The notes: generated from the sequence alone by a model not told the origin. A DNA stretch of 64,000 bases from Candidatus Hermodarchaeota archaeon (GCA_048885535.1 JBHLLO010000002.1:1-64000); one strand, 5' to 3'. Positions 41,351-46,188 are shown, counted from the first letter of the stretch. Made by a program: numbers and translations.

Positions 41351-42385
41351 TTATAACGGAAATAACGCTGTTAAGATATTGTCTCTATAGTTTGCCTTTA
41401 TAACTTTAGCCTTGATTTTTTTGTTTAAAATTTCATCAGAATAAAGGAAAGGTTTTTTTAATAAGACCTTTATACCAAAATTTCTACTAATTTTTCCAAT
41501 ACACTCATAATTCCAACGCCCTATTGATACTATCTCCAATTCTATTATATCATGTTTTTTTAAATTAATGTTTGAAACAGGAAGGCGTTTATGAATCCCA
41601 AAATCTAAAGGTCCGAGTTTTAATTTGATATTGTATTTTTTTTCTAACTCAGTTAAATGTTTATAGAAATAAGTCCATGATTTTGGACGAATTTTTTTTA
41701 ACTTTCTTCCTGTTTTATATATTAAGTATTTCTGAATGCCAATTTGGACCTTTTCTTTAGAGTATCCTTCATTCCTTAATTGAATGACAAATTTAATTAT
41801 ATCCTCAATATCTTTATCATTTTGGTTTGGAAACCATACAGGTGCAATTAATACATTAATATTGGAGTCTAACAAGTAATAGATGTTCTGGATAAGAGCC
41901 TCAAGATTGTATTGCCTACAATCGCATAAATAATTTGCTTTGCTTTCATTTAGTGTATTTAAACTAATATTTATACGTGTAAGATTTAAGAGATTCAACT
42001 TTTTAATAATTTGTTTTGATAGTAGCAACCCATTACTTTGCATTGAGATAATTTTTACTCCCTCAATTTCCCAAAGTTGGCTTAGTAACCTATACAATTC
42101 GGAGTATAAAAGGATTTCACCATAGGGAGCAATATGAATTTCTATATTAAAATTTCCTTTAATAGTGACAGCTTTTCTTACTTCTTTAGCCAAATAATTG
42201 GAATTTACTATAAAATTAGTATTATAATCACCTGCATTTACAAAACAATATTTACATTTCAAGTTACATAAAGTTAAAGGTTTTATTTCAATTACATTAG
42301 TACTACGATCTATTAAACCAATAAAATCAACCCCCATTAGGGGTATTTCTGATTTTTCATCAATATATATTGTATTAGTAGTCAT
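41351..42385 (-). CDS. Radical SAM protein (archaeal COG2100-like)
   Basis: IPLMGVDFIGLIDRSTNVIEIKP, CNLKCKYC, SMQSNG, GIQKY. Confidence 0.85.
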   Translation of the reverse strand: MTTNTIYIDEKSEIPLMGVDFIGLIDRSTNVIEIKPLTLCNLKCKYCFVNAGDYNTNFIVNSNYLAKEVRKAVTIKGNFNIEIHIAPYGEILLYSELYRLLSQLWEIEGVKIISMQSNGLLLSKQIIKKLNLLNLTRINISLNTLNESKANYLCDCRQYNLEALIQNIYYLLDSNINVLIAPVWFPNQNDKDIEDIIKFVIQLRNEGYSKEKVQIGIQKYLIYKTGRKLKKIRPKSWTYFYKHLTELEKKYNIKLKLGPLDFGIHKRLPVSNINLKKHDIIELEIVSIGRWNYECIGKISRNFGIKVLLKKPFLYSDEILNKKIKAKVIKANYRDNILTALFPL

Positions 42386-42416: not shown

Positions 42417-43490
42417 CTAAGGTTTATACCTCAAAATAGCTACTATATCACCTAAAGCAATAATTTGTTGACCAGTAGGTTGTTCACTACTCAAAATGTA
42501 ATATTTCCCATCAGATTTTTCTATATCAGTTAAAATCTCTTCAATTTCAAGTTTTTTCTCTTTTGAGATACCACGTATTAAAATATCTGTAATAAATAAT
42601 TCTTCTATCACTCCACTTTTGGATAAATTAGAGATCTCTTTCACTCCAATAGCAATTAAGTCTGGATCAGTTGCTAAAATTGCAAAAATTTTCTCTATCT
42701 TATCTGTTTCTTGAAAAATTTTTACCTTTTCTTTTAAATTCTTTAATTGGGGAGATTTTAAGGTTTCAAATATTGCACTCTCAGTACCTGAGCTTGCATG
42801 AATAATATTAATTTTAGATAGATAATCCGGTTGTTTCTTGTCTTTAAGGTATTTTAGAAATTTGTCTTTAATATTTCCAGGACCACACAAGATAATTAGA
42901 TTTATATTTATGTTTTTGACGTTTTCATCCAATACTTTATTAATATCACCAAAAAATTCTTCATATGCTTTATTTCGATGGATTTGTTCATATCTTTTTC
43001 CGGGAATTGTTTTTTTAATAGTGGCTATTCTTGTATGACTAAAGTTAGTGATAAGTGCAGCATTTGCTAATCCGCTTTCAATTGCAATTATAAGTAGTAC
43101 AAAATTAACATCAAATTTTGAAAATTCCGTTAATCTTTTTATCTCACTCCTTAACCACATCTCCTTTATAATACTTAATTCGTTACCCACTTCGATATTA
43201 AATGTATGATAAGTTCCGAAACTCACAAAATCTTCAGGACCTTCACTAATTGTACCTTTAACTCTTAATCTATTTGAAAATTCATGGAATGAAACAGATT
43301 CTACCTTTAATTTTATCCACATTTTTTTTCGTTCTCCTTTTGTACCTTCCCTTAATACTACTCTTCTAGAAGTTCGCGTAGAAACATAATCATTCTTAGA
43401 AATAACATTATAAAGTGTCCATAAATCATTTAATGTTTCAATTTTAACAATGACTTCTTGATTTTTATTATCTATTTCAAGAATCTTCAA
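42417..43490 (-). CDS. pelA: Pelota/Dom34 ribosome rescue factor
   Basis: ETLNDLWTLYNVI, FSNRLRVKG, GTYHTF, IPGKR, GPGNIK, IVAILRY. Confidence 0.92.
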   Translation of the reverse strand: MKILEIDNKNQEVIVKIETLNDLWTLYNVISKNDYVSTRTSRRVVLREGTKGERKKMWIKLKVESVSFHEFSNRLRVKGTISEGPEDFVSFGTYHTFNIEVGNELSIIKEMWLRSEIKRLTEFSKFDVNFVLLIIAIESGLANAALITNFSHTRIATIKKTIPGKRYEQIHRNKAYEEFFGDINKVLDENVKNININLIILCGPGNIKDKFLKYLKDKKQPDYLSKINIIHASSGTESAIFETLKSPQLKNLKEKVKIFQETDKIEKIFAILATDPDLIAIGVKEISNLSKSGVIEELFITDILIRGISKEKKLEIEEILTDIEKSDGKYYILSSEQPTGQQIIALGDIVAILRYKP

Positions 43491-43622
43491 ATATCAAATC
43501 AACTTTCTTAAACTGGTTATTCCTAATTTAGTTAAAGAATAGATATTAGAAAAGCTTACTTTTTTAGAAGGTATAAACAGTAAATAAATAAAAAAAGGAA
43601 AATGAAACAAAAATACAAAGAT

Positions 43623-43775
43623 TTATTCTTTTTCTCCTAAGGCTTCCCTAATTTTTTCAAGTTCTTCCATTCTTTTCTTCTTTTCTTCTTCCCTTTTTCT
43701 CAGTTCTTCCACACTAACCTTTTGGAGAGTGACTCCCTTCTTAATCTCATCTTGTAACTCTTTATCAATTGGCAT
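43623..43775 (-). CDS. 50-aa microprotein with WH2-like motif (not in ORF track)
   Basis: ATG at 43775 with AAGGAG upstream gives MPIDKELQDEIKKGVTLQKVSVEELRKREEEKKKRMEELEKIREALGEKE*. Confidence 0.7.
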   Translation of the reverse strand: MPIDKELQDEIKKGVTLQKVSVEELRKREEEKKKRMEELEKIREALGEKE

Positions 43776-43899
43776 TATACCACAACTCCTTTACAATCAA
43801 TAATTCTTGAGAAGAAATTATAATCTTAATTTACAGATATTATAACAATTTTTATTTATAAGTTTAAGTTTATAGAAAAACATTAAAACTAAAAGAAAA

Positions 43900-44352
43900 T
43901 TAAAGAGTTATTTCCATTAAATAAGCACTTTCTCGATTACTATAATAATTTTCAATTTCTTGAACTATTTGGAAATTAAATTTTTGATAAAGTCTTATTG
44001 CAATCCAATTTTTTTTATTAACAGTTAATATAATTTTCTTTATTTCTTGATATGCTTTGATTAGTTCTAATGCTGCTTGAAATAAGTATGAACCATAACC
44101 CTTATTTTGATAGGTTTTTTTTATTAAAAAGTTTATTATATTAACTCTATCTCTTCCGTCTCGAATAGCAATTATATAACCAATGATATTAGAGCTGTTT
44201 TTGCTCAATAGCTTTAAAAATAAAGAATTTCGTAAAATCAATTTTGTCATAGTTTGTTTTGAAAATGAATCTTGTTTGAATATCTGGTACTCCATTTTCA
44301 TAATTTCCTTTAAATCATCTAAAACGACTCTCTTTATCTCCAAATTATTCAA
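43900..44352 (-). CDS. GNAT N-acetyltransferase (RimI/Ard1-like)
   Basis: YQNKGYGSYL motif A, NWIAIRLYQKFNF, YYSNRESAYLM. Confidence 0.85.
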   Translation of the reverse strand: MNNLEIKRVVLDDLKEIMKMEYQIFKQDSFSKQTMTKLILRNSLFLKLLSKNSSNIIGYIIAIRDGRDRVNIINFLIKKTYQNKGYGSYLFQAALELIKAYQEIKKIILTVNKKNWIAIRLYQKFNFQIVQEIENYYSNRESAYLMEITL

Positions 44353-45484
44353 TCTCTTCTTTAAATTCTTTTATTGGAGTCTTTTCAGTTATTTGCATGT
44401 ACTTTTCATCTCTAAACGGGGTAATTTCTACAATAAATCCTTGTAATTTATACTGATCTAATAATTCTATGAATCTCTCTTCTAAAGCAAATGCTACTGG
44501 TATTTTCATCTTTTGTTTATCATAAAAGACATATTTCTGAGGTATTCTTATTTTATTCAATAACAATTCATTAAGTTTAAATAAAGATTGCTCACTTCCT
44601 TCAATCTGAGCAAATAATAGTAATCCATCATTATTAATAGATTCAAATGGTTTTTTGATTGATTTTGCGCGACGTAAATATCGTTCTTTTAGTTGCCAAT
44701 AATCTTTTGCGCTTATAGAACAAAAATGGATTTTCATAGAAACTTCAGGGTAAATTTTTTTTAGTAATTTAAGAGCCGTCTTTTTGCTGTTCTCTACAGC
44801 TGCAATTGAATTTTTTTTTAGTCTGAAACCTTTTTCTCTTAAATATTGACTATTGGTAAATGAAAATTCAAATTCGTTTAAATTTATAAATTGGACCCCT
44901 ATTTTATCTAGAAATAATATTAATTCTTGGAGTTGCTCCATGTATTCTTTAGTTGGAATTACTGGTACCTCAACTCCAACAGTCATTCCTTTTTTTAATG
45001 CTAATGAGATTACTTTCCATCTATCTTTAGGAGGATTAAATCTTATTTCATTTAGCCCTGCTTCAGCTAATTGATTAGCTAGTTCTTCACTGAAGTTCAA
45101 CCCATTTGTATATAAATGTATATGAAACCTCTTCCCTTTTTTTCTCTTAACATATTTTATAATATCTATTGTTTTTTGAAAATTGGTATCAGAGAGGGGT
45201 TCCCCACCCGTAATACTCATTCCTTTTGCTTTGGTTTTATTAATTTCGTGAATTATTTCTTCGTGGGAATTAATTTTAATTTCGTTTGCGAAGCTAAAAT
45301 CTTTTCCTTTTCTTTCAAAAGAAATTGGGCAGTACCAATAACAATGTTTGGGATTTTGGCATATTCCGTTTAGGAACAAGACAGTTTTCTCTCCGTTTAG
45401 GCATAACTGGCATCCTTTTGGAATCCCTCTACCTTTAATATAGTATGTTAGTGCTTTTGATTGTATTATTCTTACATTTTTCAT
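44345..45484 (-). CDS. Radical SAM protein (archaeal COG2108-like)
   Basis: PKGCQLCLNGEKTVLF, CQNPKHCYWYCP, SITGGEP, HIHLYT, EIRFNP, NLNEFE. Confidence 0.85.
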   Translation of the reverse strand: MKNVRIIQSKALTYYIKGRGIPKGCQLCLNGEKTVLFLNGICQNPKHCYWYCPISFERKGKDFSFANEIKINSHEEIIHEINKTKAKGMSITGGEPLSDTNFQKTIDIIKYVKRKKGKRFHIHLYTNGLNFSEELANQLAEAGLNEIRFNPPKDRWKVISLALKKGMTVGVEVPVIPTKEYMEQLQELILFLDKIGVQFINLNEFEFSFTNSQYLREKGFRLKKNSIAAVENSKKTALKLLKKIYPEVSMKIHFCSISAKDYWQLKERYLRRAKSIKKPFESINNDGLLLFAQIEGSEQSLFKLNELLLNKIRIPQKYVFYDKQKMKIPVAFALEERFIELLDQYKLQGFIVEITPFRDEKYMQITEKTPIKEFKEEIE

Positions 45485-46188
45485 TTTTTATAGAGCTTTT
45501 TTCTTACTATAGATTTTTTATTTGAAAGTTTCTTCAATACTTCTTCTGTGCTTTCTTGAATATCAATTACTTTCTTTAAAAATACTCCTGTTCTTCCGTA
45601 TTTTTCTCTTTTCAATAAAACTTTTACTCTTTCTTTTACGGTATTCAAACTTATTTTTAATTCTTTTGCTACTAAATGTTCATTTCCAATAATAGAGTAC
45701 TCATCATGCCCTTTATAATTAGGTTTAATCATTACTAATCGTTTATCAACTCCAGGTACTCTGAGGTGAGCCTTTAATTGATTAAGACTTACTTTTCCTC
45801 CAAAGTCATAGAATTCTATCGAATTCATATCCAGTTTAGAAAGGGGAACTGTTATACTTTCCATTTCATTCAAATATATGTATAATTTTAGAGAATCATT
45901 TGGAGTTGCCATAATTATTTCTCGAAAATAATTATTAAATCCATTTTTATTAAGGATATATTCAATCTGATAGGATGAGGTTGATTGAAGAAAAATTATA
46001 TCTAAATCGCTCTCTTCATGAACATCCCCACGCGCAATACTTCCGTAGATGTATGGATTAAATCCTGCTTTTACAAAAATATTTAATAGTTCTATTGCTC
46101 TCTTTCTTTTTAATTTAATAAGTTCCCATTGATTTTTGGAGTATGTATGCGATTGATAATGCTCTCTTAATATTTTTTCCCTTTTCAT
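45481..46188 (-). CDS. Nucleotidyltransferase-domain protein (archaeal COG2413-like)
   Basis: YGSIARGDVHEESDLD, EFYDFGG, RVPGVDKRL, GRTGVFL. Confidence 0.85.
   Translation of the reverse strand: MKREKILREHYQSHTYSKNQWELIKLKRKRAIELLNIFVKAGFNPYIYGSIARGDVHEESDLDIIFLQSTSSYQIEYILNKNGFNNYFREIIMATPNDSLKLYIYLNEMESITVPLSKLDMNSIEFYDFGGKVSLNQLKAHLRVPGVDKRLVMIKPNYKGHDEYSIIGNEHLVAKELKISLNTVKERVKVLLKREKYGRTGVFLKKVIDIQESTEEVLKKLSNKKSIVRKKLYKK

Follow-up and report, generated by a model that had tools for sequence, protein, structure and literature searches.

Eukaryotic WH2 motifs comprise an N-terminal amphipathic helix, a short linker and an L-[KR]-[KR]-[VT]-type element, the consensus of the actin-binding element being LKK[TV]. 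In Asgard archaea, the actin regulators described are mainly profilins and gelsolins, as far as the sections of the reports drawn on here extend (PMC9433394; PMC13716822; bioRxiv 10.1101/2025.11.30.690169). The main texts on co-immunoprecipitation with Lokiactin in L. ossiferum name Lokiactin itself, profilin(s), five gelsolin-homology proteins, an ARF GTPase and BAR proteins (PMC13716822; bioRxiv 10.1101/2025.11.30.690169). Within the literature found, and in the sections of it used, the only WH2-like elements reported in Asgard archaea are LKKT-type four-residue L-x-x-V elements in the linkers of two-domain gelsolins, where they lie on actin (PMC9433394; bioRxiv 10.1101/2025.11.30.690169). 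Further afield, the C-terminal peptide of arcadin-2 from Crenarchaeota binds the hydrophobic groove of crenactin that WH2 and thymosin use, and in Leishmania profilin a WH2-like helix and the profilin core bind the same actin monomer, according to the parts cited of PMC5173319 and PMC10907219, respectively. A stand-alone archaeal protein of WH2 or thymosin type is not reported in the abstracts and article text searched.

Here we describe a small gene in a 64,000-nucleotide stretch of DNA (hereafter the window) filed under Candidatus Hermodarchaeota archaeon. Judged by its sequence, we give about an even chance to the reading that it is a free-standing copy of an order-specific linear module of about 45 residues that would bind Asgard actin monomers much as WH2 motifs or β-thymosins do. 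The gelsolin elements, as described in the sections cited above, lie within a folded protein and are not preceded by an amphipathic helix as an independent module, whereas the present family is free-standing or modular and has a helix of its own.

The gene is ATG-initiated and its 50 codons encode MPIDKELQDEIKKGVTLQKVSVEELRKREEEKKKRMEELEKIREALGEKE (Table 1). Position, length, upstream AAGGAG and protein sequence agree with what the initial annotation had given, the sequence exactly. Purine boxes of the GGAG, GGTG or GAGG type occupy the equivalent upstream position in most orthologues, and the start is unambiguous because only five sense codons separate an in-frame upstream stop from the ATG. 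The 124-nt AT-rich spacer on the 5′ side and the T7 run on the 3′ side suggest that the gene forms its own transcription unit. Oligo-T stretches serve as transcription terminators in archaea; the TATA-like strings are weak promoter evidence, since such strings are common in a genome of 30% G+C.

Table 1 Features of the microprotein locus (positions counted from the first nucleotide of the window)
Feature	Position	Strand	Basis
Microprotein CDS including stop codon, 50 aa	43623..43775	-	ORF listing, intact orthologous frames and dN/dS
Shine-Dalgarno-like AAGGAG, 10 nt 5′ of the ATG (43775-43773)	43786..43791	-	Read directly
WH2/β-thymosin-like half, residues I3-V20: predicted amphipathic helix I3/L7/I11, G14 break, L17-Q-K19-V20	43716..43769	-	29-orthologue alignment A1 and PDB profile alignment
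Long charged helix, residues E23-L46: EEKKKRxEELxK core, hydrophobic stripe M36/L39/I42/L46	43638..43709	-	Alignment A1; equivalent segment helical in AF2 models of fusion and repeat proteins
T-rich stretch with T7 run (43596-43590), ~27 nt 3′ of the stop: putative oligo-T terminator before Pelota	43580..43600	-	Read directly; function by analogy with archaeal oligo-T termination
TATA-like AT-rich strings TATAAATAAA and TTATAATAT within the 124 nt between the GNAT gene and the ORF: possible promoter of the microprotein gene	43837..43860	-	Read directly
Pelota/eRF1-family gene, downstream neighbour	42417..43490	-	Pfam eRF1_1/2/3
Radical SAM gene	41351-42385	same as microprotein	Pfam
GNAT acetyltransferase gene	43900-44352	same as microprotein	Pfam
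Second radical SAM gene	44345-45484	same as microprotein	Pfam
Nucleotidyltransferase gene	45481-46188	same as microprotein	Pfam

The 50-codon frame is a real, conserved small gene under purifying selection. In a tblastn-type search of 41 related genomes, an intact frame of 49–53 residues was found in all 24 same-genus genomes (61–94% identity; one cut by a contig end), and frames of 51–58 residues were present in three sister families. The median Nei–Gojobori dN/dS among 22 genus orthologues (41 aligned codons) is 0.12, calculated over those 125 of the 231 pairs in which dS had not reached saturation, and the variable columns at codon positions 1, 2 and 3 number 21, 13 and 39 of 41. A public protein collection holds 202 homologues of 27–88 residues at E ≤ 0.01, all of them unnamed or called ‘hypothetical protein’ and without a Pfam domain. 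An open frame this short might arise by chance in an AT-rich genome, or mark a non-coding element, but the intact orthologous frames and the dN/dS effectively refute that explanation, to which the excess of third-position over second-position variation and the number of homologues are likewise opposed; we regard its probability as close to nil.

The initial annotation had called the gene unannotated, which is correct only with respect to the ORF track that it used, with its cut-off of 60 residues. Its further expectation, that standard gene callers would miss the frame, was mistaken, because the exact window protein is already on record in NCBI-sourced collections, together with orthologues that NCBI labels ‘hypothetical protein’. 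The submitter labels on these records are inconsistent: near-identical orthologues (70–90%) from one GTDB genus are filed at NCBI under Heimdall-, Hermod-, Hod-, Thor- and Lokiarchaeota/Promethearchaeota (among the names of P0002, P0018, P0023, P0070 and others), and are not reliable as taxonomy.

Nearly all searched genomes from a single order of Loki-type Asgard archaea carry the family, and no other genome in the search set was found to have it. A profile of 29 orthologues (alignment A1), run against 301 genomes across the Asgard phylum, matched 63 of 68 genomes of the window’s family (f1) and all 7 of a sister family (f2), and neither of the 2 genomes from other families of the same class. 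The 41-genome search places the microprotein in two further families of the order, f3 (1 of 1 genome) and f4 (4 of 4). Outside f1 and f2, the profile gave 2 marginal matches in 225 genomes (2 of the 223 further ones), which are probably noise since both have E values of about 1e-3, lie within long frames and cover the profile only in part. The module was not found in other actin-bearing Asgard lineages within this 301-genome survey. This restricted distribution favours either an origin within the lineage or divergence so great that relatives are no longer recognizable, and with the family confined to a single archaeal order, common descent with eukaryotic β-thymosins is not established.

In the window protein, the N-terminal half displays the pattern L7-x3-I11-x2-G14-x2-L17-x-K19-V20 and with it the WH2-type layout of amphipathic helix, short linker and L-[KR]-[KR]-[VT]-type element. 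Across A1, from which the RHH proteins L038 and L039 were left out as multi-domain, K19, E31 and R35 are invariant, and L17, V20, K32–34, E38, L39 and K41 are conserved in at least 90% of sequences. This half reads E-L-x-x-E-I-K-K-G-V-x-L-Q-K-V in the window’s genus and E-L-K-K-A-I-E-A-G-A-S-L-K-K-V in family f4, the first basic position of the L-K-K-V-type element being Q in the window’s genus and K in f4 and genus g2. Genera g2 and g9 have a linker that is three residues longer and have lost the glycine (E-I-E-A-M-N-K-E-K-L-K-K-V); G-x-x-L is kept in f1 and f4. Eukaryotic WH2 and β-thymosin motifs differ from each other in linker length in the same way. The layout is that of WH2 or, in its long-linker form, of β-thymosin.

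Half of the conserved residues (E31, K32–34, R35, E38, L39 and K41) sit outside the WH2 motif, in the charged helix; this EEKKKRxEEL helix, which is part of neither eukaryotic motif, is at least as conserved as the WH2-like half. By itself, the WH2-like motif is not beyond chance genome-wide: when the 3.09 Mb genome is translated in six frames, the regular expression L...I..G..L.K[VT] has 3 matches, where 20 residue shuffles gave 0.5 on average and at most 4; for a looser version the figures are 2 matches and a shuffle mean of 3.25. It is conservation (24 of 24 frames, dN/dS 0.12) that lifts the motif above chance. The close fit to the WH2 consensus claimed at the outset therefore needs dividing: residues L7, I11, G14, L17, K19 and V20 are present, and L17, K19 and V20 are conserved, but the motif lies within chance and the conserved charged helix is foreign to WH2.

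Formal searches gave little. A Pfam scan of the window ORF returned no match to WH2, thymosin or RPEL at E ≤ 10, and a search of the whole genome with the WH2 profile (PF02205) returned 0 matches at the same threshold. WH2 was matched by 2 of the 29 orthologues (f4/g4), at 13.1 and 14.4 bits against a gathering cut-off of 23.1, so the Pfam test suggested in the initial annotation came out negative. None of the 29 members matched thymosin (PF01290) at E ≤ 10. RPEL motifs have the signature R-P-x-x-x-E-L, and K-P-D-x-x-[ED]-L is frequent in copies of the module embedded in larger proteins, 40% of the 144 having the P; the window protein has K-V-S-V-E-E-L; RPEL (PF02755) was matched in none of the Pfam scans at E ≤ 10. 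The sub-threshold matches that did appear (DUF7067, SUIM_assoc, DUF3006, H-NS_N and others) were rejected as far below their cut-offs and due to the composition of the charged helix; DUF3006, found in 17 of the 29 orthologues and hence commoner than WH2, is meaningless.

The best match of the A1 profile among 177,635 PDB sequences is the N-WASP tandem-WH2 construct 3m3n chain W (E 7.3e-4), with profile positions 7–24 aligned to every repeat. This score adds up three repeats that individually reach 5.8–8.8 bits, and in a control an f4 orthologue alone scored E 3.7e-4 against AI-designed TIM barrels, likewise by repeat summing; the similarity to the N-WASP array is at noise level. A phmmer search with a thymosin-like orthologue found no thymosin chain at E ≤ 10, although a chain of an actin–thymosin β4 fusion is in the library. 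A protein language-model tool, whose calibration treats scores below 0.9 as leads only, placed the window protein nearest to a first named cluster that is 52% PF01290 thymosin (0.85, 159 of 256 features; a lead only) and a long-linker orthologue nearest to a chordate-dominated ‘thymosin beta-4 family’ cluster that is 85% PF01290 (0.87, 185 of 256; again a lead only). As the formal tests are negative or at noise level, sequence statistics alone do not establish membership of the WH2 or thymosin families.

Compared with eukaryotic WH2 motifs (PF02205; the N-WASP repeats), the module shares a short amphipathic helix, a Gly three residues before the Leu, and L-x-K-V, and like them it occurs alone, in tandem arrays and on signalling domains. 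Unlike them, it falls below the Pfam threshold, often has Q or E where an L-K-K-V-type element has its first basic residue, and is always accompanied by the conserved 25-residue charged helix. The free peptide resembles β-thymosins (PF01290) in its length of about 50 residues, in its succession of helix, linker, L-K-K-[VT]-type element and second helix, and in the longer linker of the g2 and g9 orthologues. It differs from them in matching no thymosin in Pfam (29 members) or the PDB, and in a C-terminal helix that is much longer and more conserved.

The module is not confined to the free gene. A search of 1.84 billion representative proteins with the A1 profile retrieved 75 proteins at E ≤ 1e-3. 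In one family, of about 250–390 residues, one to four modules are flanked by an N-terminal and a C-terminal domain, and a dedicated search recovered 52 homologues at E ≤ 1e-3. The AF2 model of one member has a mean pLDDT of 68.8, with about 80 in the N-terminal domain, and Foldseek aligned it best with the Odin profilin 5zza_P (E 1.5e-9, target-normalised TM 0.88, 25% identity), followed by 5zzb, 5yed and 5yee; Odin profilin and Loki profilins 1 and 2 came ahead of all other folds, the profilin matches spanning E values of 1.5e-9 to 1.1e-7. Pfam Profilin (PF00235) matched two fusion proteins at 19–22 bits, and 2 of the 52 homologues have a precomputed match. In the genome of the window, the profilin orthologue has a gene of its own (202 residues, contig C22), which matches the fusion-family profile at E 2.9e-52 and Pfam Profilin at 24.4–25.2 bits (cut-off 25). 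The fusion partner is thus a genuine Asgard profilin by fold and by family-model match. The module part of the fusion-family profile in turn detects the window ORF (E 1.5e-5), and genomes that carry the fusion also retain the free small gene.

In the fusion model, the module consists of a helix (residues 145–161, pLDDT 43–47), a loop (162–169) and a second helix (170–193, pLDDT 62–65). Profilin and a WH2-like helix on a single polypeptide are also found in the trypanosomatid protein, as described in the part of that report cited here (PMC10907219), and here the arrangement occurs in the fusion family of about 250 residues. The two differ in that the module lies C-terminal to profilin, after a low-confidence linker of about 25 residues, and is not internal; that an extra C-terminal domain follows; and that the present arrangement is known from sequence and models. 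The last 55 residues of the fusion proteins (columns ~265–322 of alignment A3) are themselves well conserved, with an invariant D-x-I-Y-D-D-F-x-x-L-x-x-K and no Pfam match, and are modelled at pLDDT of about 70–84 as a non-helical segment (~202–218) followed by a helix (219–237).

Tandem proteins of 437–497 residues contain about ten 45-residue copies of the module and a non-repeat middle segment. In those of 480–497 residues, the family profile detects 8–9 copies, with a best overall E of 2.5e-27. Examples are L041–L046, from f2 genomes G038, G032, G040, G035, G036 and G025, and P0121 and P0160; among the genomes searched, the ten-copy protein occurs only in f2, and the genes beside it are non-cytoskeletal. 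β-Thymosin repeat proteins also consist of multiple repeats, a parallel to the roughly ten-fold array that is drawn from general knowledge. The AF2 model of a tandem protein, built on an input alignment of only seven sequences, has a pTM of 0.19 and shows 36-residue helices separated by low-confidence G..L.K[I/V]D loops of 8–10 residues. Such non-compact models would fit independent linear motifs that fold on a partner, and poor prediction looks alike. Weakly matching frames of 440–460 residues from the window’s own genus proved to be ordinary coiled-coil proteins and were set aside.

Further fusions place the module beside a Ras-family GTPase and an RHH domain (Ras 99–111 bits, RHH_1 24 bits, above cut-off), beside LRRs, in some cases with RHH or a zinc ribbon, beside RHH in proteins of 120–135 residues, and at the end of one coiled-coil protein. 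The Ras–module–RHH proteins have 317–357 residues and lie at L092:3779-4729 (-), L093:3668-4726 (-) and L094:3368-4438 (+). Over 144 embedded copies in 78 proteins, a set dominated by profilin-fusion homologues, 89% retain the Leu of L-x-K, 92% have [P/I/V] at the position that follows and 96% have the Arg equivalent to R35. A 762-residue eukaryote-like protein, P0168, combines FHA, PP1-binding and two SAP domains with the WH2-like half, repeated seven times in tandem (E 5.8e-8); it matches the N-terminal half of A1 only and Pfam WH2 below threshold (18.1 bits), and it indicates that this half of the motif can occur in nuclear-type proteins too.

The recurrence of the module next to RHH (CopG-type) domains, in the Ras fusions and in the short RHH proteins, raises the question of whether its K/R-rich helix might touch DNA or RNA as an accessory to nucleic-acid binding or transcriptional regulation. 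We consider this highly improbable, because the helix has as much acidic as basic character (EEEKKKRMEELEK), DNA-binding domains are absent from the profilin, LRR and tandem-array contexts, and no nucleic-acid-binding family was matched in the curated-model scans of the family.

The chromosomal context of the free gene is non-cytoskeletal as well: Pelota, GNAT and radical-SAM genes in the window, and ZPR1-like or MoxR/WD40 genes elsewhere. The row of radical SAM, Pelota, microprotein, GNAT, radical SAM and nucleotidyltransferase genes is collinear in nearly all genus loci examined (L002–L024), the GNAT gene being absent from it in L007 and L022. ZPR1 is a chaperone of eEF1A in eukaryotes, and Pelota is present throughout the archaea. 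Since Pelota lies directly downstream and in the same orientation in every genus locus examined, as it does in genera g5, g10 and g3, and a ZPR1-like gene adjoins the microprotein gene in g2 and g9, the protein might be an accessory factor of translation or ribosome rescue that acts with Pelota or aEF1α. This is very unlikely in our view: the family is confined to one order when Pelota is archaea-wide, the synteny is broken in f4, g2 and g9, the microprotein stop and the Pelota start lie 132 nt apart with the T7 run in between, and no translation protein is found among the fusion partners. Links to Pelota and translation, like those to DNA binding, are thus minor rivals of an actin-binding function.

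The main rival is that the module is a general helix-loop-helix unit of interaction or oligomerization for a non-actin partner, for instance a lineage-specific signalling or membrane-remodelling protein, its likeness to WH2 being coincidental. It draws on the charged EEKKKRxEEL helix, where conservation is strongest, outside the WH2-like part; on the diversity of the fusion partners, from Ras-like GTPase, LRR and RHH to coiled coil and profilin; and on the failure of every curated actin-motif model, with PDB similarity at noise level and a motif expression within chance. Yet a genuine profilin is the partner in at least 52 proteins, β-thymosin is the nearest named language-model family of two diverged members (at lead level), L17, K19 and V20 are conserved as strongly as the helix, and no result points to an alternative partner. 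The unexplained conserved charged helix and the failure of all curated models keep this explanation alive, and we hold it to be unlikely.

Actin-monomer binding in the WH2 or β-thymosin manner, which we favour, is suggested by the conserved motif layout, by the natural fusion to profilin and by the WH2-like reuse of the module alone, in tandem and on signalling proteins. The stand-alone thymosin- or WH2-type protein that the initial annotation had proposed survives to this extent: the gene is genuine, WH2-like positions are among the residues conserved throughout the order, profilin fusions exist and the language-model leads point to thymosin, but Pfam fails and the charged helix is not of WH2 type. 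We infer the actin contact, its site and its effect on polymerization from these comparisons only. In the proposed arrangement, G14 would terminate the N-terminal helix and L17-x-K19-V20 would run along the actin surface like an LKK[TV] element. The 25-residue charged helix, with its stripe of M36, L39, I42 and L46, may then reach towards the pointed face or add another contact, in the way that β-thymosins use their C-terminal helix. The expected effect would be to buffer actin monomers or hand them over, beside profilin and the gelsolins. Arcadin-2 provides a precedent as a short helical archaeal peptide that regulates an actin homologue, as presented in the part of the study cited (PMC5173319); it differs in coming from another phylum, in having crenactin as its partner and in being part of a larger protein, with no sequence relationship apparent.

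A broader reading, tentative and on balance rather improbable, is that one Loki-type order possesses an unrecognized family of G-actin-binding linear modules, acquired by descent or by convergence and deployed as a free buffering peptide, as an add-on to profilin, as a ten-fold array and in proteins wired to Ras, LRR and RHH domains. If so, the ten-fold array could nucleate or measure filaments, and the connections to Ras-like GTPase, LRR and RHH domains would couple the sensing of actin state to signalling and transcription. The archaeal repertoire of actin regulators would then be much richer than the known profilins and gelsolins; a free-standing WH2- or thymosin-type peptide, with its fusions, would form a third class alongside them, and short linear actin-binding motifs would either not be a eukaryotic invention or have evolved twice. 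A synthetic peptide of 50 residues is a cheap reagent that can be tried directly on Lokiactin.

Candidate partners are present in the genome of the window, which encodes two actins of 381 residues (85% mutual identity) and two more distant actin-family genes. The first actin is 99–100% identical within the genus and about 90% identical across the order, and scores about 530–540 bits against eukaryotic actins. The second actin gene (L048:1471-2613) is followed after 55 nt by a gene for a 400-residue protein (L048:2668-3867), the two together covering ~5422-7803 of contig C58. In this protein, the N-terminal ~150 residues match the profilin-type domain of the fusion proteins (E 1.3e-33) and the middle is a TrmB-type winged helix (E 4e-11). 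In 26 related genomes, all five full-length homologues of this protein are encoded directly downstream of an actin paralogue, and it may be an actin-linked transcription factor.
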